Below the pieces are notes generated by a model that made no database searches, was not told the DNA's origin, and saw nothing but the letters and a program-made list of their open reading frames with translations. DNA of 64,000 bases from Candidatus Onstottus arcticum (lineage in GTDB: Bacteria > Acidobacteriota > Blastocatellia > UBA7656), in assembly GCA_038040485.1 (NCBI GenBank), contig JBBPIE010000006.1, forward strand, positions 142,435 to 206,434, in the 5' to 3' direction. The position numbers and the translations under genes are program-made. Below are positions 2,587 to 63,243 of the stretch, piece after piece. Each line of letters opens with the position of its first letter. Within the stretch, counting starts at the first letter, position 1.

Positions 2587-3822
2587 ATGACAAATCTCTT
2601 GGTTACGCGGTTGCTGTCGGTTCTTTTGTTTACCCCGCTCTTTGGTTTCGGACAGAAGCCGCTGCCGTCGACACAGCAAGTCCCAACCCAACCTACGGCT
2701 ACGAATCAATCCAAAAAAACCGGCGGCCAGCCAAGGGCGCGGGAATCATTAGCGGAAGCCGGAGCGACGTCAACGTCGAAGCTCGCTTTGCCATTCAAAC
2801 GAGCCTGGCAGCATCTCACGGGCGGCGCGACCCCGATCGCGCCCACGGTCGACGACGCGCGCATCTACCTGCCGCTCACCGGCGGCCGCGTGTCTTGCCT
2901 AGACCGGCAGACCGGCTCTTTGCTCTGGTCGAGCGAGCCGGGCGGACAGATCACCGCGCCCGCCGCAGCCGGCGACAACTCGATCTATATCGCGACTCGC
3001 AACGTCGGAGAAGACGGCACGGAAGCAGGCGGCTCGTTGCGCGCGGTGGACAAGGCTACTGGACTCACCGTGTGGGTGCGCGACTACCCGCGCGCGTTCT
3101 CGTCGACCCTCGAGCTTGCCGCAGGCCGGGTCTACGCCGGAAGCTCGGACGGCTCGTTCTATGCGCTCGAATCGAAGAACGGCGAGATCATTTGGAAGGT
3201 CGAATCCCAGGACGTCGTTCGAGGCCGCGCGCTTGTGACCGAGCAAGCCATCTATTTCGGAAGCGACGACGGAGTCTTGCGAGTCGTCGAGCACCAACGC
3301 GGCCAGCTCATCTGGAAGTATCAAACGGGTGGGAGAATCATCGGGCAGCCGGTCGCCGGCGAACGAGAACTGTATTTCGGATCGGGAGATGGGTACGTCT
3401 ATTCGCTGGAGCTCGCAACCGGCAAGCTTCGTTGGCGATCGCGCACAGGCGCCGCGGTGGAAGCGTCGCCTGTCATTGTCGGCGACCGCCTGCTTGTAGC
3501 GTCTTACGATAACTTTGTGTACGCGCTGTCGCGCGCAAGCGGCGACCGAATCTGGAAACGCCGTCTCGAAAACCGCATCACCGCCGCGCCCATAGTCGAA
3601 GGCGACGCAAACCTCGTAGCTCCCTTGCACGGTGATTATGTCGCGGTCTTCTTGAACGCCGATGGCCGTCGAGTAAACCTCTTTCAACTGGATCCCGACT
3701 TCGAGATCGTGGCTGAGCCGGTCTTTTCGCGCGACACTCTGGTGATTCCTACAAATCAGGGGTTGGTCGTTGCGACCGCCGCCAAACCGGCCGAGCCGCA
3801 AACCAGCGCGATCAAGAAATGA
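2587..3822 (+). CDS. PQQ-like beta-propeller repeat protein (BamB/YVTN-like), secreted
   Basis: ATG at 2587 gives the signal peptide MTNLLVTRLLSVLLFTPLFGFG. Repeated PQQ-type blades follow (GGRVSCLDRQTGSLLWS, GSFYALESKNGEIIWK, GVLRVVEHQRGQLIWKYQTGG, YVYSLELATGKLRWRS, FVYALSRASGDRIWKRRL). The track start at 2581 is a TTG. Confidence 0.8.
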   Translation: MTNLLVTRLLSVLLFTPLFGFGQKPLPSTQQVPTQPTATNQSKKTGGQPRARESLAEAGATSTSKLALPFKRAWQHLTGGATPIAPTVDDARIYLPLTGGRVSCLDRQTGSLLWSSEPGGQITAPAAAGDNSIYIATRNVGEDGTEAGGSLRAVDKATGLTVWVRDYPRAFSSTLELAAGRVYAGSSDGSFYALESKNGEIIWKVESQDVVRGRALVTEQAIYFGSDDGVLRVVEHQRGQLIWKYQTGGRIIGQPVAGERELYFGSGDGYVYSLELATGKLRWRSRTGAAVEASPVIVGDRLLVASYDNFVYALSRASGDRIWKRRLENRITAAPIVEGDANLVAPLHGDYVAVFLNADGRRVNLFQLDPDFEIVAEPVFSRDTLVIPTNQGLVVATAAKPAEPQTSAIKK

Positions 3823-4325: not shown

Positions 4326-5540
4326 TCAACTCGTTATTGCCCGGCACATTCGCTCGACGCCTTCAGAGATCGCTTCCGGCGACTCCTTCGAGTAAGCCAG
4401 CCTCATCGTGTTTGCTCCGCTGCCGTCAACAAAAAAGGGCTGACCCGGTACGTAAGCAACACCGCCGGCGATGGCGCGGGGAAGAACTTCAGTGGCATCG
4501 ATCCGGTTTGCGAGCTCCAACAGAATGAAGAACCCGCCGATGGGCTTTGTCCACCGCGAGCCCGCCGGCGCGAAGCGCTCCAGCGCTTCGAGCATCGCGC
4601 GGCAGCGGACTTCGTAGAAACGGCGAAGCTCGGGCAGCCGCCGCTCAATCAAGCCCGAGAGAATTGCTTCAGCGACGATCGTCTGATCCAGGACACTCGA
4701 GGAGAGATCGGCCCCTTCCTTGGCTAGCTCGATCTTCTTCGCTATCGGCTCTGGCGCGCGCAGATACGCGGTTCGAATGCCGGGCGCGAGCACTTTGGAG
4801 AAAGTACCCAAATAGACGACTCGCTCCGGCCGAAGCGCCGCAAGCGGAACCAGCCGCGCCCCTTCAGATTCGAAATACAGATCGAAGTAAGCGTCGTCCT
4901 CGATGATCAACAAATCGTGCTCGTCGGCTATCTCGACAAGCTGATGCCGCCGCTCGGTCGCAAGCGTCACCCCCGAAGGGTTCTGAAAATTCGGAATCGT
5001 GTAGATGCACTTGATGCGGCGGCCTTCTCTCGAGACCTGATCGAGCTTCTCGCGGAGGTCGCCGATGACGATGCCGCCGTCATCCTGCCGCACACCGATC
5101 ATCTCAGCTTGCGAGTTGTGCAATGCAATGATTCCGCCGATGTAACTCGGAAGTTCTACTAGCGCTATGTCACCCGGATCGATGATCACCCGCGAGATCA
5201 GGTCGAGACCCTGTTGAGAGCCGCTGGTCATAATGACTTCGGCGGACGAGACATGAGTCAACCCTCGTTCACGCAGAAGTCCGACGACCGCATCAACCAG
5301 GGCGGGCTGGCCCTTGGTCGGCCCATACTGAAGGGCGACGGGTCCTCGCTCGCGGATGACTCGCGAAGCGATCTCGGCAAGCTCCTCGATCGGAAACGTT
5401 TCGGCGCTGGGAGCGCCCGCCGCCAACGAGATCACTTCCTTGTTGCCCAGCAACGCAGTGAGCTTTCGGATCGCGTTCGGACGGATCCGGCGACCCAGCT
5501 CGGAAAGCATCTCGTCGTATTGGATTTCGGTTTTAAGCAT
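4326..5540 (-). CDS. PLP-dependent aminotransferase, class I/II fold (AAT-like / 2-aminoadipate transaminase-like)
   Basis: 404 aa with ATG start. Typical aminotransferase I/II blocks are present (LAAGAPS, NPSG, LIIEDDAYFDL, TFSKVLAPGIRTAYL with the Schiff-base Lys). Confidence 0.85.
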   Translation of the reverse strand: MLKTEIQYDEMLSELGRRIRPNAIRKLTALLGNKEVISLAAGAPSAETFPIEELAEIASRVIRERGPVALQYGPTKGQPALVDAVVGLLRERGLTHVSSAEVIMTSGSQQGLDLISRVIIDPGDIALVELPSYIGGIIALHNSQAEMIGVRQDDGGIVIGDLREKLDQVSREGRRIKCIYTIPNFQNPSGVTLATERRHQLVEIADEHDLLIIEDDAYFDLYFESEGARLVPLAALRPERVVYLGTFSKVLAPGIRTAYLRAPEPIAKKIELAKEGADLSSSVLDQTIVAEAILSGLIERRLPELRRFYEVRCRAMLEALERFAPAGSRWTKPIGGFFILLELANRIDATEVLPRAIAGGVAYVPGQPFFVDGSGANTMRLAYSKESPEAISEGVERMCRAITS

Positions 5541-56281: not shown

Positions 56282-58735
56282 CTATCTTTCTTGTTTTGCG
56301 CCTCGCGGCTCGAGCACCAGCCGCTCGGCGGCATTCTTCTCAACCTTTTCCCGGCTGAACAGCATAGGGAAATACTTCCCTTCGACCCAGAGCGGCAAAA
56401 GGTCGGCGTAGTGCGGACTCGTCGGCTGACCCGACTGACCAGGCACGTTGATTGCGACCGAGTTGTCCCAATCGCTCAGATCGAGTATCTCGCGAAACGA
56501 CGCGCCGGCTCGCTGTATGAACTTGGGGCCGCTCGTAGCGTTGACTGTGTTCCCGTCGCCGCCGCGTGCAACACTCTTCAGGTCGAACACTGATCGCGTT
56601 GCGTCGTCCGTCGAGAGCGGATGCTTGAACTCCGCGACATGAAGATCGCTCCAGCGCCATTTCTTCATGTCGGGTCCGAATCGGGCGCGCAGCTCCCTCA
56701 CCGCGTCAGCGAAACTCATCGCGACCAGCAGACGCGCTTTGCCCTGTGCGTTCGCTCCGAACAACTTCGCGTCGGGATTCTTCAGCGCCCGGATCATCGT
56801 TGTGAACAGCACGCCGCTACCAACCTTCCCCCGCGCTTCGGCAGGAAGAATCCGATCCGCGAAAGTCACCCCGAGTTTCTGAATCCACATTTCGTAAATC
56901 GCGGCGCCTGCGGAGTCCTTCGCTAACACGCGGTCCCATCTGAGAAGGAGCCTGCCTGCTTGCTGGATGTGTATCGGAAACCCGGCAAGCCGGCCCTTCA
57001 AAAGCGGCACAAGTTCGCGAGCCGGAAGCGATGCTTCGTCGTGCTGCAATCGTTTGAAGTCTTCAACCGTGAACTTCGCACTCTTGCCCAGCACCTCCTC
57101 GATCCGATTGAAGCGATACGGCGCGGCCCATTCAAAGTTGATCTCGTGCTTGTATCCCTCCGGGATGACTTTGTGATTGGCTGTAGCGATGAAATTCTTC
57201 GCCGGGTTGTATGCGCGCGGCAACTCCGAAAGCGGAAGGAACCCGTCCCACTCGTAGCGGCCGGAATCGCCCGGCACCGGCAGCAAACCCGACCATCCGC
57301 GCCTAACCGGAGCCGCGCCTGCCGCTTGCCAGCCGATGTTCCCGTCCACGTCCGCGTAAACCAGATTCTCCGAAGGCACCTTCCAGCGTTCGAGCGCCTT
57401 CAAGAACTCGGGCCAGTTCTTCGCGCGATTCAGCGAGAGCGATGCCAGGTAACCCGCCGACCCGGGCTCGCTTCCAATCCACTTCAGCGCGTACGCGCGA
57501 TCGAGATCCGGATCCTCGTAGATAACCGGCCCGTGCCTTGTGAACTTCAGCTCCACGTCGATTGGTTCAGCCCTGCCTTTTACTTTGATCTTCTCATGCT
57601 CGACCCTCATACGAAGCCACTTGTCCTTGAAGCGGTACACAGTCGGGAAGTTCGGGCGGATTTGTTCGACGTAGAGGTCTTGCTGGTCGATGCCGACGAT
57701 CGTGAACCCGAATCCGATTCGCTCATTGTGCCCCGCCGCGACTCCCGGCAGAGTCGGTTCGCCCGCGCCGATTACATTCCAACCCGGTCCTACCAGATGA
57801 ACCATATACCTGAGCGAGGGCAACAGGATTGGCCGATGCGGATCGTTAGCGAGAATCGGTTTGCCGGTCGCCGAAAGCGCGCCGCTTACGACCCAGTTGT
57901 TGCTGCCTTCGGTTCGCGAACGCGCTTCGATCTGGGCGAGGGTTTCGCCATCGCCCGCCAGACTCGAGGTTGCGGACGCGCCTCCCGAAAAGCTCACCGG
58001 CGTGCTGGCGGCTTTCGCTCCCGCGAGTATCTTTTCGTCGATGCCGGTCAGGTCCAGACCCGCGGGCACTTCAACTTTCTTAAAGGGATCAGTCTCGATC
58101 CATAGATCGACCTTCTCGGGACCGAACCGTTTTACGAGTTGCGCCCGAAGGACTTCCGCCGACGCATTGCGGGTCATCACATATCCCGCCATTCTCGTCA
58201 GACAAACTTCGGGCGTCCACGGCTCCGGCTTGATGCCCGTCAACTCGAACTCGATGGGTAAACGGTCGCGGCTCGTCTCGATAAACGCGTTCACGCCTCT
58301 GACGAACGACTCGATGATCTGCTTGGCGTCGGGCGCGTAGCTCTGCCACTCGGCTTCCATGTTTCCACGGTAGCGCATGAGCCGCGCGAACTTGTCGCGC
58401 TCGACGGCCGATTCTCCCAGCACCTCCGCGAGCTTGCCCTCTCCGGTTCGACGCCAGATCTCCATTTGCCACAGCCGGTCTTGCGCGGCGACAAAACCCT
58501 GGGCAAAGAACAAATCCTCCTGGGTCTCCGCGTAGATGTGCGGGACACCCCAGCGGTCACGGATGACTTCAACCGGCTTCTGTAAGCCGTCCAACTCGAT
58601 CCGCCCCGACGTCTGAGCCAGCGCGGCTCGCGCGCGCGAACGGAGATCGGCAACCGACCGGTCCAACGAATTGCCGCTGATTCCGATCTGGATCGCGAGG
58701 CCAACGGCCAGGATGGTGAGGGCGAGCTTCTTCAT
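56282..58735 (-). CDS. penicillin acylase / N-acyl-homoserine-lactone acylase family (Ntn hydrolase)
   Basis: ATG at 58735 gives the signal peptide [21 protein letters not shown]. Autoproteolytic/nucleophile motif GSNNWVVSG and a downstream DPH block. Confidence 0.9.
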
Positions 58736-58923
58736 CGGGCTCTCGGCGGTTCCGCTTCCGCATAGCAAGGCGGCACGTCCGCTTCTACCGCGGCTCCTGA
58801 TTCAAACGTCGATGAGGTATTTGCAGGTCTAGCCTGCGTCTCCACTGTGCGGTGTCTTTCGGGAACGATATGCTATGCCGCGCAGGTGAATGCGTCAACC
58901 TGAGGCATACGGCCTCGCGCGCA

Positions 58924-59211
58924 CCGCGTAGCGGCCTCCTATCGATAGTTCGCGCGCTGGACCAATGTCGTGGACCGCGTAGCGGTGTCCTATCGATAGC
59001 ACGGTCATCAAGCGTCAACGCCTGGCCGCATAGCGGCTACCTGACCTTCGCGCTGACCGACCGGCATGCGTATGGATCCAGGTACCCGCTACGCGGCCCG
59101 CTCGCCCCGCGCACGTTCGGTCTATCGATAGGTAGCCGCTACGCGGCCCGCTCGCCCCGCGCACGTTCTGACTATCGACAGGTAGCCGCTACGCGGCCGC
59201 TTATCTCGACA
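58924..59211. repeat. composite repeat array: inverted/direct copies of CGCGTAGCGG-N5-CTATCGATAG plus 2.6 tandem 50-nt units, between the divergent acylase and radC genes
   Basis: 58924-58948 and 58975-58999 in one orientation. 59081-59130, 59131-59180 and 59181-59211 in the other. Contains the perfect 10-bp palindrome CTATCGATAG three times. Confidence 0.75.
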
Positions 59212-59227: not shown

Positions 59228-59255
59228 TTGCACACCGACTGACTCGGTATATAAT
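59228..59255 (+). promoter_or_regulatory. sigma70-like promoter for radC (TTGCAC - 16 nt - TATAAT)
   Basis: -35 at 59228-59233. -10 TATAAT at 59250-59255. SD GAAGGAAGG before the ATG at 59334. Confidence 0.45.
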
Positions 59256-59333: not shown

Positions 59334-60017
59334 ATGAGCGACAACCCAGATCACCACGAACATCGCAAACGGCTAAGAGAACGCTTTCAGCGAGGCGGCG
59401 CCGAAGGGCTTCACAACTACGAACTGCTCGAACTGCTGTTGACCTACGCAATCCCGCGAGTCGACGTCAAACCTCCAGCCAAAGCGTTACTGAAACGGTT
59501 CAAGACTCTCGGCGGTGTGCTCGACGCGAGCCAGGCTGAGCTTGAATCGGTTCGCGGACTCGGCGGGTCGTCGGCAGTTTTGATTCGACTGGTTAAGGAG
59601 CTTCTGGGCGCGTACCTCGAAGAGCAGATCCAGCACCGCGACGTTCTCTCGTCACCAGAAGCTGTGAGGGACTTCGCGCGGATGAAGCTGGCGGGGCTCC
59701 CGCACGAAGCCTTCATGGTTATCTTTCTTGATGTGAAGAACCACGTCATCGACCACGAAGTCCTGCACGAAGGAACCGTCGATCGCGCAGTTGTCTACCC
59801 GCGCCGCATCATCGAATCTGCGCTTGCTCATCACGCGGCTGGATTGATCCTGAGTCACAACCATCCAAGCGGCGACCCCGCGCCTTCACAGGAAGACAAA
59901 AGGCTAACTCGCAGCGTAGTCGAAGCTGCTCGAACCGTGGAGATCAGAGTGCTGGATCACTTGATAGTCGGAAAGGCCGGCCACTTCAGCTTTCATGAGA
60001 ATCAGTTGTTGAGTTAG
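59334..60017 (+). CDS. radC: RadC-like JAB/MPN domain protein (UPF0758)
   Basis: N-terminal HhH region (GYRERFQ-like, ELLELLLTY...PAKALLKRFKTLGGVL) and the JAMM motif HNHPSGDPAPSQED. Confidence 0.85.
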   Translation: MSDNPDHHEHRKRLRERFQRGGAEGLHNYELLELLLTYAIPRVDVKPPAKALLKRFKTLGGVLDASQAELESVRGLGGSSAVLIRLVKELLGAYLEEQIQHRDVLSSPEAVRDFARMKLAGLPHEAFMVIFLDVKNHVIDHEVLHEGTVDRAVVYPRRIIESALAHHAAGLILSHNHPSGDPAPSQEDKRLTRSVVEAARTVEIRVLDHLIVGKAGHFSFHENQLLS

Positions 60018-60075: not shown

Positions 60076-60933
60076 CTATTCCTCGATCAAGCCGTGAGCC
60101 TTCATATAATCCCTCAGGTGCGTGGCGAAATCCTCTGCCTCATCTTCTTCGACCAATTGCTTATCGATTTTGATCTTGTGAAGAATATCCTTTGCTTTGG
60201 CGTAGGCTCGTTGATGGCTTTCTATGAGCGGACGACCTAAGAGTATGTAGAGCTTGGACAACTCGGGATGGCCTTCCACTGCAGCCGCAGTTCCGAGCAT
60301 ATTCATCGCTCTTCGTTGAATGGTCTCGGCCTTGACGTAGTCTAGTGAGACCGCTTGTAGCACTCGCCAATTGTCGTTCTTGAACGCGTGATCAAACTTC
60401 AAAGTTACCTCGTCGGTTTGAAGCGTCCAGGGACGAAGCCTCTTATGTACAAGCGTCTGTACTAACGGCCTGCTGTAAACAGCCCAAACTTCTTCGTCCG
60501 TGCGCTTCTCAGTCTCATGGGCCGCGTATTGCGATGCCACCATTCGATCGAAGATTTCACTAAGCGCTTGATCTGGATCATCCGTGATGCCCGCCAGGAC
60601 CGGGCCCGAGATAAAGCTGAGCCCCTCATCCGGCCATATCTGAGCGATGAATCCAGCGACTGTTTCGGGTGGCCGGCCCGGCGGCAACAGCGTAGGCACC
60701 AAGTCTTCCGAAAGCTTGTCGAGCGCCGATTCAAATTGTCGCAAGGACCGTTTGTAGTGTTCACCTTTAAAGTCGACAAAAGTGTTAGACAACCTCTCGA
60801 AGCGATGCTCGAATCGAGCAGCCAGATATCGCACGGATGGCGCCCAGAGAACGACACCTACATTGAGCGTCTCTCCCGTCGCCGGATCGTGAAGGTATTT
60901 GACGACACTATACGTATAGGATATGCCGTTCAT
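60076..60933 (-). CDS. DUF3037 domain protein
   Basis: N-terminus MNGISYTYSVVKYLHDPATGETLNVGVVLWAP matches the DUF3037 consensus (YSVLRYVPDxxRGEFVNIGVIL). The ATG overlaps the upstream stop (ATGA). Strong SD AAGGAGC. GC about 52%. Confidence 0.8.
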   Translation of the reverse strand: MNGISYTYSVVKYLHDPATGETLNVGVVLWAPSVRYLAARFEHRFERLSNTFVDFKGEHYKRSLRQFESALDKLSEDLVPTLLPPGRPPETVAGFIAQIWPDEGLSFISGPVLAGITDDPDQALSEIFDRMVASQYAAHETEKRTDEEVWAVYSRPLVQTLVHKRLRPWTLQTDEVTLKFDHAFKNDNWRVLQAVSLDYVKAETIQRRAMNMLGTAAAVEGHPELSKLYILLGRPLIESHQRAYAKAKDILHKIKIDKQLVEEDEAEDFATHLRDYMKAHGLIEE

Positions 60934-61760
60934 AGCAAGCTCCTTTGAAGCTCCAACTCGAATTGAGGGAGATTCATTATAACCTCAGTGATGTGCTCGC
61001 GCACTCTGGCGGCCTCGGATTGCCAAGCTCCCGGAAGAGCCGATGCTAACTGTTCAAGGCGCTCCGCGGTTAGAGCGCGCAGCCGGACAATGAGCGGCGT
61101 CCAACTTGGGGCCTTTGCTTTCAGTATCGAGTAAAACAGATGATTTGCTCCGATTCCGTGGCGTGATACCTCCCAAGGTGGAGCAAGTCCTCCAATGATC
61201 GGGAGCAAGAAACTAAAAGACCTCTCGAAGTCGAAGGCGATCAGAGATCCTGCAAGCGATGCGCAATTGGGCCTGTCCCACCGTCGATCTGGATTCTGCA
61301 CCAAGAGATCAAAGCCATAGATCAGCGTCGCCTGCTCAACTTCCTCTTGCGTCAAGAAAGCACCGGGCACGGCAGGCGTAAGTCCGCCATGCAGATATTC
61401 GCACCCGGATCCCAGACTAGGCGTCAAAGAAATACCGTATTCCGCAACAAGCGGGCTGACCGCCTGAACAAACTCGGGGCTTAAGTTGACGAGCGCCGGT
61501 GTCGGAGTAGCGACGCCGAGTTCTCTTGCCAGGAGATTCCCGAACACTTCACAAAACAAACTGGTCTCTGTGACTTCGGGGTGACCGACTGATTTGACGA
61601 CCATCAGACGATGATCCGGCGGACTTTCCGAGGTCTCCTCTTCTGAAGACGCGGACGAGTAATAGGCGCAGTCAACGACCAGCGGCCGAGTGCGGCCGAC
61701 GTCTAGCACCTTCTCAAAGCGTTGCGCTTCCCAAGTCTCAATCACTGGTGAACCTCGCAA
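60930..61760 (-). CDS. HipA-like kinase-fold protein (short, divergent catalytic loop)
   Basis: ETSLFCEVFGNLLARELGVATPTPALVNL aligns to HipA NEYYCLLLAKELGLNVPDAEIIKA. YGFDLLVQNPDRRWDRPNCA...LIAFDFERSF aligns to the HipA catalytic loop and activation-segment region (FQWLIGATDGHAKN...LTPFYDIISAF). Start TTG at 61760 or GTG at 61745, 10 nt after the hsdS stop. Confidence 0.6.
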   Translation of the reverse strand: MRGSPVIETWEAQRFEKVLDVGRTRPLVVDCAYYSSASSEEETSESPPDHRLMVVKSVGHPEVTETSLFCEVFGNLLARELGVATPTPALVNLSPEFVQAVSPLVAEYGISLTPSLGSGCEYLHGGLTPAVPGAFLTQEEVEQATLIYGFDLLVQNPDRRWDRPNCASLAGSLIAFDFERSFSFLLPIIGGLAPPWEVSRHGIGANHLFYSILKAKAPSWTPLIVRLRALTAERLEQLASALPGAWQSEAARVREHITEVIMNLPQFELELQRSLL

Positions 61761-61770
61761 ACATCAACTC

Positions 61771-63243
61771 TCACTTGCGTCGGCCCGCCCCTTTGCTGAG
61801 TCTCCGTTCTTGAAAGCGATTCGCTCTAGCGGTGGGCGGAGCCGCTGCTTCATTGCTGCGGCCTGTGCGGATGCTTTCTAGGAGAACAGATGCAGGTTCG
61901 TAGTCGCGGCCTTCGCGGCGGGCGAGTTCGGCTTCGGTCGGAACGAGTTCGCCTCGGAAGGCTTTGGCGAGGATGGATTGTGTCAGCTTATCAACGTGCG
62001 CCTGAGCCTTTCGATAACCCCCTTCAATCTGGTCGGCGAGTTTGAAGAGAGCTTCGACGCGACGGACGATTTCACTTTGTTCAGTTAGCGGTGGGAGTGA
62101 GATTCGCAGTCCTCGCACTTCTTCGCTGTTGATGTTATGCACTCCACTTGTCGAGCGTGCCGGGATTTCGATCTGGAGTCGCACATCGTAGCTGGATAGG
62201 GCAAGATTCAAATACTCCGGCAAGACCCGTGATCTGTTTGGACGAAGCCGAATCAGATAGCCCGCGTAAGCAAACCCTTTCTCCGGTTTCCTGATGAGTG
62301 CAGACTTGCCAACCAGAGATACGCTACCGTTTGACCTGATTAACAATACATCGCCTGGAACCAACCTGAGCTGCTCAAATTCCCTTTCCGGCAGCAAGGC
62401 GTACTTGACATCCGAATGGTCGATGACGCCGTCGGCGATATTGGGAATGCGCAAAACGGAAACGCCCTCTTTCTCGTAGCCACACTTCTGGGCTGTTCCA
62501 TATTTCAAAGTGTCAATAACCAAACCAACGCCAACCGACATCCAAGACTCGGGAAACTCATTCGTGGTCGATTGTCTTGCCTCGTCGAGTTGGATGAAGG
62601 CAGGTTCAGTATGCGGATTTTGCTCTCGCCAGTCAGCAGTAAGTTGGCCCGAGCAGGCCGTGGCGAGGACCGATTGACGAAAGCGTTTGAGTATCACTGG
62701 GATTCTCGCAAGTCGCTTCTGGCAGGCTTCCACTCTTGCCAATAGCTGTCTCAGCTTCGCGACGATTCGACGCTGCTCCGCGACCGACGCAAGAGGAATC
62801 TCAAGGTTGGCGAGCTTAGTGGCATTCACATTGGGGACTGCTATGCCGACAGACGACTCGGAGATGAAGGACCAATACGAATCAGACTTTAGATAGAATT
62901 CCAGATACTGGGGCAGAACGACATCCTTCAACGCCTTAAAGCGGATTAGGTAGGAGGCAAAGACGGCGTCGACCGGTGCTCGTCGAACTCGGTGACTAAT
63001 GCCGACCGAGCCTGCCCTTGAAACTAGAATGTCGTTGGGTGCTATGCGATACTTTTCTAAGTTAGCTGGTGGGGTTTGACAAAACGGGACACTGTCCCAA
63101 TCCTCAAGCCCATTTGAGATATCACTGGTCCTTAGTAGCCTGATCTTGCCAGACTTTGTCGCGCTAGATGTCCATCCGTACTGAGGCTTGGTGCACATTT
63201 CGCCTAGGGTAGCCAGAGTCCAGCCTTCCGGCAAAGTGTTCAT
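61771..63243 (-). CDS. hsdS: type I restriction-modification system specificity subunit HsdS (two target-recognition domains)
   Basis: Conserved HsdS central and C-terminal coiled regions (SVAEQRRIVAKLRQLLARVEAC, LPPLTEQSEIVRRVEALFKLADQIE) flanking two variable TRDs. The ATG overlaps the hsdM stop (ATGA). Confidence 0.9.
   Translation of the reverse strand: MNTLPEGWTLATLGEMCTKPQYGWTSSATKSGKIRLLRTSDISNGLEDWDSVPFCQTPPANLEKYRIAPNDILVSRAGSVGISHRVRRAPVDAVFASYLIRFKALKDVVLPQYLEFYLKSDSYWSFISESSVGIAVPNVNATKLANLEIPLASVAEQRRIVAKLRQLLARVEACQKRLARIPVILKRFRQSVLATACSGQLTADWREQNPHTEPAFIQLDEARQSTTNEFPESWMSVGVGLVIDTLKYGTAQKCGYEKEGVSVLRIPNIADGVIDHSDVKYALLPEREFEQLRLVPGDVLLIRSNGSVSLVGKSALIRKPEKGFAYAGYLIRLRPNRSRVLPEYLNLALSSYDVRLQIEIPARSTSGVHNINSEEVRGLRISLPPLTEQSEIVRRVEALFKLADQIEGGYRKAQAHVDKLTQSILAKAFRGELVPTEAELARREGRDYEPASVLLESIRTGRSNEAAAPPTARANRFQERRLSKGAGRRK

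Follow-up and report, generated by a model that had tools for sequence, protein, structure and literature searches.

The window (the whole stretch of DNA analysed, 64,000 nucleotides long) contains a divergent gene pair, consisting of a penicillin amidase family gene (the acylase) and a gene for a RadC-like JAB domain protein (radC), each accompanied by a promoter-like site. Between these sites lies an array of six repeat sites, three per strand, with a period of 50–51 nt and a mirror centre at ~59061 (Table 1). The left-arm sites are at 58924, 58975, and 59026 on the minus strand, 51 nt apart, and the right-arm sites are at 59080, 59130, and 59180 on the plus strand, 50 nt apart. Read on the proper strand, the motif is (A)CCGC-GTA-GCGG(T)-NNA-CCTATCGATAG, that is, a hairpin, a linker, and an xTAG box. 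In the outer left site, the hairpin is the outermost part and the box faces the array centre, and the innermost copy in each arm is a half-site without the CTATCGATAG box. The near-identical spacers that flank the middle right site bear the mark of a recent tandem duplication that copied the 50-nt unit in full, and the central position of the array is the place of a Y1 transposase gene in its autonomous relatives.

Table 1. Sites of the array and neighbouring features in the acylase–radC region (coordinates of the window)
Feature	Position	Strand	Description
Penicillin amidase family gene	56282..58735	(-)	left neighbour, outside the element
Acylase promoter-like site	58870..58898	(-)	TTGACG-17-TAGCAT; just beyond the left end of the element
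Outer left full site L3	58923..58948	(-)	hairpin (A)CCGC-GTA-GCGG(C), linker CTC, box CTATCGATAG
Middle left full site L2	58974..58999	(-)	hairpin ACCGC-GTA-GCGGT (5 bp), linker GTC, box CTATCGATAG
Inner left half-site L1	59024..59042	(-)	GGCCGC-ATA-GCGGC-TACCT, without TAG box
Centre between inner half-sites L1 and R1	59043..59079	.	37 nt
Inner right half-site R1	59080..59098	(+)	AGGTACCCGCTACGCGGCC, without box
Two near-identical spacers flanking R2	59097..59171	(+)	CCCGCTCGCCCCGCGCACGTTC..; 92% match
Middle right full site R2	59122..59148	(+)	CTATCGATAGGTAGCCGCTACGCGGCC
Outer right full site R3	59172..59198	(+)	CTATCGACAGGTAGCCGCTACGCGGCC; box with one mismatch
radC promoter-like site	59228..59255	(+)	TTGCAC-16-TATAAT; ~30 nt beyond the right end of the element
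RadC-like JAB domain gene	59334..60017	(+)	right neighbour, outside the element

Much of what the sequence-only reading had described at this locus was recovered. The copies of CCGCGTAGCGG..CCTATCGATAG that it placed at 58924 and 58975 are both present, as are their reverse complements at 59122 and 59172 and a partial copy at 59080, and the 50-nt tandem unit on the radC side was returned by TRF as 2.4 copies over 59079–59198, with a 92% match. Exactly three CTATCGATAG palindromes were found, as claimed, together with one copy carrying a single mismatch. The large palindromic layout, proposed to be centred near 59060, proved to be a mirror symmetry about 59061 that is stronger than described: a third left-arm copy at 59026–59042 (GGCCGCATAGCGGCTACCT) was absent from that description, and because it exists, the array is a symmetric 3+3. 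The gap of 17 nt to the -35 box of radC had been counted from that reading's own end coordinate, 59211, and needs correction, since the repeat proper ends at 59198, ~30 nt before TTGCAC (59228–59233).

Within the window, the motif was strongly concentrated at the array. When one mismatch was allowed, CTATCGATAG had six matches, as against 1.03 expected, and none of 100 shuffles reached six; the two matches outside the array (9327 and 25815) are isolated. The 17-mer AGGTAGCCGCTACGCGG, with up to three mismatches, also had six matches, all at the array, as against 0.33 expected. Folded as single-stranded DNA, the 289-nt element reached -86.3 kcal/mol (z = -5.5). A scan of the window with Rfam identified two tRNAs only and no CRISPR repeat family, so the array corresponds to no known RNA family. 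The Logan short-read assembly of SRR28961256 splits within the right arm, with one contig ending at 59115 and the next starting at 59139 (L001 and L002). The nature of the array explains such short-read assembly breaks at this locus, and because arrays of this kind fragment assemblies, their copy numbers in metagenome-assembled genomes (MAGs) are probably underestimates.

The repeat is dispersed. One genome per bacterial species was scanned with CTATCGAYAGGNNNCCGCTAYGCGG, for which less than one match was expected by chance, and the motif was found in at least 98 stretches of the reference genomes, nearly all of them in Blastocatellia/Acidobacteriota MAGs. At least 43 motif-bearing stretches were found in SMAG_U13211, at least 28 in SMAG_U13382, and at least 3–7 in each of five others. 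The window likewise derives from a related Acidobacteriota MAG and has 82% nucleotide identity to locus L016 over 835 bp. Among the matches listed, 108 of 110 clusters had the same architecture, with minus-strand sites followed by plus-strand sites ('-...- +...+'). The 2+2 form was the commonest (36 clusters), and a typical element of this form is ~167 nt long; the 3+3 form occurred three times, and arms contained up to 12 units. The period was 49–52 nt in 200 of the 235 adjacent pairs among the matches listed.

In the unit of the family, a GTA loop caps a G+C stem of 4–5 bp, and a 3-nt linker leads to the box CCTATCGATAG. Across 291 copies, only a module of 25–27 nt, CTATCGATAGG-[T/A]N[A/G]-CCGCTACGCGG-YY, was conserved, and the spacers of ~25 nt showed no conservation between loci. 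Adjacent spacers within one arm had a mean identity of 83% (median 88%), compared with 55% between loci. The arms therefore lengthen through tandem duplication of complete units. According to a crude ORF model, the clusters lay outside ORFs in 77 of 80 cases among the matches listed; the genes on either side were tandem in 47 of the 80, divergent in 18, and convergent in 12. No target-site duplication was detected in 76 elements, in which the best direct repeat at the junctions was 2.41 nt, as against 2.29 nt in shuffled pairings (maximum 2.59).

Two features of particular genomes were also noted. In many 2+2 elements of SMAG_U13211 and SMAG_U13382, one border is a conserved block of ~47 nt, GGAGTTTGGACATTCCACTTGGCAACCTTCAACAACGCAACAGAGGA, and the opposite border is the hairpin CACCTCACTGAAGTGAGGTG (loci L005, L007, L015, L051, L052, L059, L075, and others). 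These borders, which are absent from the 64-kb window, suggest a larger composite repeat in the two genomes. The Blastocatellia repeat also occurred in MAGs labelled 'uncultured Clostridia' (CAZJQQ and CAZOOE; L010, L055, L068, and L088); these bins are probably mislabelled or contaminated, and one of their loci (L055) is syntenic with a Blastocatellia locus (L008).

The occupancy of the acylase–radC spacer varied among relatives. The divergent pair was kept in eight related loci, with acylases 73–84% identical, and a ninth locus (L189) stops before radC. The spacers of L181, L185/L186, L187, and L188 were empty, 225–243 bp long, and lacked the element, and in these loci the TTGACG...TAGCAT and TTGCAC...TATAAT boxes were kept, with the -35 boxes ~24 nt apart. 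The same element was found in L182, at the same place and with the same right junction as in the array, with fewer copies (on the left two good sites and a degenerate one, on the right a single site). Unrelated palindromic inserts occupied the orthologous spacer in L183 (1854–2324), L184 (1646–2126), and L189 (1–480), the last of which includes a long inverted repeat of ~300 nt. Overall, seven of the eight orthologous spacers lacked the array or contained another insert, with both promoters kept; the two promoter-like sites are thus retained whether the element is present or not. The repeat family occurred elsewhere in genomes in which this site was empty (the JBBPIH bin) or filled by another insert (SMAG_U13382). 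The array thus represents a variable insertion, not a conserved control region, and the gap between the back-to-back promoters is a hot spot into which small elements insert. No clean junction could be defined between the empty L181 and the filled array locus, and no target sequence is definable because the flanks beside the insert have diverged.

On the other side of radC, the genes differ in every relative (window positions 60076–63243, compared with L181, L182, L185, and L187). In the window, radC is followed by DUF3037, HipA_2-like, and type I restriction–modification HsdS genes; PRiA4_ORF3 is found in L185 and L182, with an N6_N4 methylase in addition in L185, an ATP-grasp gene in L181, and 23S_rRNA_IVP in L187 and L188. 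The arrangement resembles a variable island of the defence type that is anchored beside radC.

A gene was found between the arms of some members of the family. In L008, from SMAG_U13382, an intact ORF of 155 amino acids lies between the arms and matches Pfam Y1_Tnp (E = 1.7e-25). The protein has the HuH motif DHVH, the catalytic-tyrosine motif YIQNQEQHH, and ~35 amino acids after the Y motif. On one side of the gene lie two sites plus a half-site overlapping the stop codon, and on the opposite side there are nine sites. At 4371–4390 of this locus, the stop codon TAG lies within the inner half-site (GCG TAG GTAACCGCTACGCGG), so that the end of the Y1 gene and the repeat overlap. In L055, from another MAG, which shares synteny with L008, a truncated Y1 copy lies between five and four sites, and the repeat copy number therefore differs between the two syntenic loci.

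A search of the JGI metagenomes with the L008 protein yielded 80 loci. The closest homologues (L101, L102, and L171; 71–77% identity) carried the same motif on their flanks in the same orientation, bringing the loci with arms around a Y1 gene to five. The neighbour genes of L008 occurred in none of the 80 JGI loci within the available flanking DNA. Synteny was judged on L102 only, which has 3-kb flanks, L101 and L171 being short contigs; because these 3-kb flanks lack the neighbours of L008, L102 represents a separate genomic context. On these sequence grounds, the association of gene and repeat is probably more than a single inherited locus, L008 and L055 alone being syntenic. Only one Y1 gene was present among the at least 28 motif-bearing stretches of SMAG_U13382, and the Y1 gene appears to be single-copy, with the gene-less clusters as the multicopy form. 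No Y1 gene was found in the 64-kb window with tblastn. When compared with the NCBIfam models, the Y1 protein passed the cut-off for NF033573 (IS200/IS605; 71.5 bits, cut-off 55) and failed that for NF047646 (REP-associated transposase; 44.2 bits, cut-off 80), and it matched ISDra2 TnpA (PDB 2xm3) with E = 7.5e-6. The Y signature Y---Q--HH was present in 78 of the 80 relatives.

Homologues with 54–67% identity lacked the array motif and carried an analogous inverted module instead, in which a 5-bp stem closed by a GTA loop is separated from a [G/A]TAG box by a linker of ~9 nt. In an inner site, 10–33 nt from the gene, an A precedes the hairpin of 5-bp stem and GTA loop, and G(A/G)CAT comes directly after its complementary strand. 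At an outer site, ~50 nt further out, the same hairpin is followed by GACATCTTTGTAG, GAAATGTTTATAG, GACCTGTCTATAG, or similar boxes; the outer sites lie ~78 nt upstream and ~70 nt downstream of the Y1 gene and are always inverted between the two flanks. A strict hairpin in the expected orientation was present in 42 of 74 upstream flanks and 41 of 78 downstream flanks, and in the opposite orientation in none upstream and eight downstream, against a background of 0.004 per 120 nt. One locus of this kind (L131) has five head-to-tail sister sites upstream of the Y1 gene (2574–2700), with a 25-nt period and no spacer, and five sites downstream (3271–3500), with a 51-nt period. The spacer is thus dispensable in at least one lineage.

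The stems of the sister modules varied, and the changes were fully compensated (GCGCC, GCTCC, GCCCC, GCACC, ACGCC, ACTCC, and GTCCC, with CCGC in the family of the array). Across 62 sites, 97% of cells were paired, compared with 35–49% in slid controls, and two-sided stem changes occurred in 59 cells, compared with 14.8 in shuffles, none of 500 shuffles reaching 59. The site filter fixed the two loop-closing pairs and left the three outer pairs free, and all four Watson–Crick types occurred at the middle stem pair. This covarying hairpin implies selection on a single-stranded structure. The boxes of the sister families are not palindromic (ATCTTTGTAG, ATGTTTATAG, etc.), and the palindromic character of CTATCGATAG, from which the sequence-only reading had derived a regulator site, is therefore incidental; CTATCGATAG is simply the version of the [G/A]TAG box found in the family of the array. 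A comparison of the 4 nt 5' of the hairpin with the first base of the TAG box, made with the IS608 guide–target arrangement as the model, identified only stem pairs and subfamily correlations and no guide–target covariation.

Several known systems resemble the family. Like the REP/REPIN/BIME repeats and their RAYTs ('REPtrons') in E. coli, Pseudomonas, and Stenotrophomonas, it consists of short extragenic hairpin repeats in many dispersed copies, arranged as inverted doublets and larger clusters without target-site duplication, and is linked to a low-copy Y1/HUH gene flanked by inverted repeats, each transposase clade having its own repeat variant. REP clusters are also 'reiterated in tandem along with flanking DNA' (PMC3733652). 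The dispersed extragenic copies, the inverted clusters, and the flanked low-copy Y1 gene with clade-specific repeats all agree with the definition of REPs, and the unit of 25–27 nt falls within the 20–40 nt of a REP stem–loop, its 5-bp stem and 3-nt loop lying at the short extreme for REPs. REPs have a GT[AG]G tetranucleotide 0–2 nt 5' of the hairpin foot (PMC6006769, PMC3733652), whereas in the present family a [G/A]TAG box lies 9–10 nt 3' of the hairpin, and GTA(G) forms the loop. Because the 5' GT[AG]G foot beside a long stem is absent, the family and its Y1 protein are not a canonical REP/RAYT pair. The family further differs from REPs in its very short stem (4–5 bp) with a fixed GTA loop, and from BIMEs, which alternate in orientation, in that its arms are runs of direct repeats with a strict period of ~50 nt. 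Nor is its transposase a class 2 RAYT; the Y motif is Y---Q--HH instead of Y---NP, and the protein fails NF047646. The acidobacterial 'TIRYT' transposases (Di Nocera et al.) were considered as a counterpart and set aside as a different, longer class.

The protein is closer to subclass 1.2 of the TnpA_Y1 transposases (Quentin et al. 2018, PMC6006769). It has the short length, the conserved C-terminal extension, the low copy number, and the proximity to IS200 transposases that characterize this subclass, and YIQNQEQHH fits Y---Q--HH; the HuH motif agrees as well, the assignment being one by motif signature. Members of subclass 1.2 have been described as low-copy genes without the typical IS200 end structures and with no reported repeat partner (PMC6006769). 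In contrast to this description, the clade identified here has a stereotyped, inverted module of hairpin plus box on its flanks and is linked to a dispersed repeat family in Blastocatellia. In the literature covered, which lay outside subscription journals, no paper was found that describes the array repeat or connects subclass 1.2 with repeats. The IS200/IS605 elements themselves (IS608 and ISDra2) provide the best sequence match through their Y1/HUH enzymes, and they share the lack of target duplication and the subterminal hairpins with a conserved short box ~10 nt away. However, an IS200/IS605 element has asymmetric ends whose hairpins both lie on one strand, and the IS itself is multicopy, whereas the ends of the present family are mirror-symmetric. 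Pneumococcal BOX elements are, like the array family, dispersed and small, with an internal module (~45–50 nt) that varies in copy number between loci. They are built from three distinct modules, without mirrored arms of one module, and are not known to have a Y1 partner.

Taking these lines of evidence together, we interpret the element at 58923–59198, with a probability of roughly 0.8, as a non-autonomous member of a dispersed, Y1-partnered family of REP/REPIN-like (BIME-type) repeats in Blastocatellia. The directly observed evidence for this is the dispersed, extragenic, and mirrored arrangement of the family, its link with Y1, the covarying hairpin, the variable occupancy, and the tandem growth of the arms. 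On this interpretation, the array is parasitic or commensal mobile DNA rather than a control region for the acylase and radC. The sequence-only reading had favoured such a region, in which a dimeric regulator would bind cooperatively to the CTATCGATAG palindromes of a locus-specific iteron or operator array and control both promoters. The position between two promoter-like sites and the perfect 10-bp palindrome at a regular period are compatible with that proposal, and plasmid iterons and centromere-like arrays such as R1 parC likewise have short repeats at regular spacing, grouped into two blocks that surround a promoter region. However, those arrays are specific to their locus and co-occur with the gene for their binding protein, whereas the present motif recurs at dozens of unrelated intergenic loci per genome (the at least 98 stretches in Blastocatellia genomes being the kind of dispersal that the sequence-only reading had itself named as decisive against a regulator). 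The array is also missing or replaced at seven of the eight orthologous spacers, where both promoters are kept, the innermost sites lack the palindrome, and the sister families have non-palindromic boxes while the adjoining hairpin covaries. A regulator is thus very improbable at this locus, and the iteron interpretation is unsupported. The same reading had offered an internally duplicated MITE as its alternative, and this comes near the truth: here, too, a non-autonomous, dispersed element lengthens its arms through tandem duplication. Its type, however, is that of REP and Y1 transposase and not of a MITE with TIRs and target-site duplication, since no such duplication was found and the partner gene encodes an IS200-like HUH transposase.

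A classical MITE, that is, a deletion derivative of a DDE-transposase IS with TIRs, a target-site duplication, and internal tandem duplication, would account for a small, non-coding element with inverted arms, many dispersed copies, and a variable number of internal units. It is nevertheless highly unlikely, given that target-site duplication is no higher than in the shuffled control, that the sole gene found between arms encodes a Y1/HUH enzyme and no DDE enzyme, and that the conserved part is a covarying hairpin rather than terminal sequence. A more functional interpretation would treat the repeat as a structure exapted by the host, for example as a binding site for a nucleoid protein or gyrase, or as RNase-protective or terminator hairpins, with Y1 as a maintenance enzyme or merely a frequent neighbour and the array insulating the two promoters. 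Enterobacterial REP/BIME repeats have host roles of this kind (given as background in PMC3733652 and PMC3479197), strong conservation of the motif contrasts with drifting spacers, the period is held strictly at 49–52 nt, and a terminator or stabiliser role is plausible for the 47 of 80 clusters that lie between tandem genes. Against this, occupancy varies among close relatives, as does copy number between L008 and L055, which argues against a required local function, and no host factor was identified; we regard the exaptation as unlikely. A degenerate CRISPR-like array, with 25-nt repeats and ~25-nt spacers that are regular and similar in length, was rejected and carries a negligible probability, because the spacers are alike (adjacent ones being near-copies with a median identity of 88%, and two near-identical at the acylase–radC locus) and the arrangement is mirrored and dispersed over dozens of loci per genome; the Rfam scan of the window points the same way.

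In the REP/REPIN-like family preferred here, the modules form direct repeats at ~50 nt in two mirror arms, with the hairpins outermost and the boxes inward, and the autonomous version carries the gene for the 155-amino-acid IS200-like Y1 (HUH) enzyme between its arms, where the array has 37 nt instead. A mechanism can be proposed for this family. By analogy with IS200/IS605 TnpA and with RAYTs and REPs (PMC6006769, PMC3479197), the Y1 enzyme would recognise the hairpin-plus-box module on single-stranded DNA, and it may mobilise or maintain the gene-less clusters in trans, as has been proposed for RAYTs and REPs. At the acylase–radC locus, the element would then occupy the gap of ~24 nt between the back-to-back promoters, setting them ~330 nt apart, and would probably have no dedicated regulatory role. 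The odds appear about even that the array family reveals the DNA partner of the 'orphan' Y1/HUH subclass 1.2, namely a module in which a GTA loop closes a 5-bp stem and a [G/A]TAG box follows, placed in mirrored inner and outer sites spaced by 50 nt around the gene, which in Blastocatellia has been amplified into dozens of gene-less clusters. If so, a REP/RAYT-like partnership would have arisen on the IS200 side, independently of the classical RAYTs.

For the locus itself, the outcome is deflationary: the array does not warrant annotation as regulatory sequence for either radC or the acylase, and what lies there is an ordinary selfish or commensal repeat. The main relevance of the finding is to research on mobile DNA, with little otherwise, and the repeat family would be usable for genome typing in Blastocatellia or as a warning flag in assemblies. 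It offers a candidate and testable DNA substrate, consisting of the GTA-loop hairpin together with the TAG box, present as an inner and an outer site at a distance of 50 nt, for the widespread and uncharacterised small HUH transposases of soil bacteria. Together with its IS200-like partner, the family appears to be a variation on the REP/RAYT theme that has not been described before, and the result also suggests that Y1 transposases may have undergone REP-like domestication on more than one occasion.
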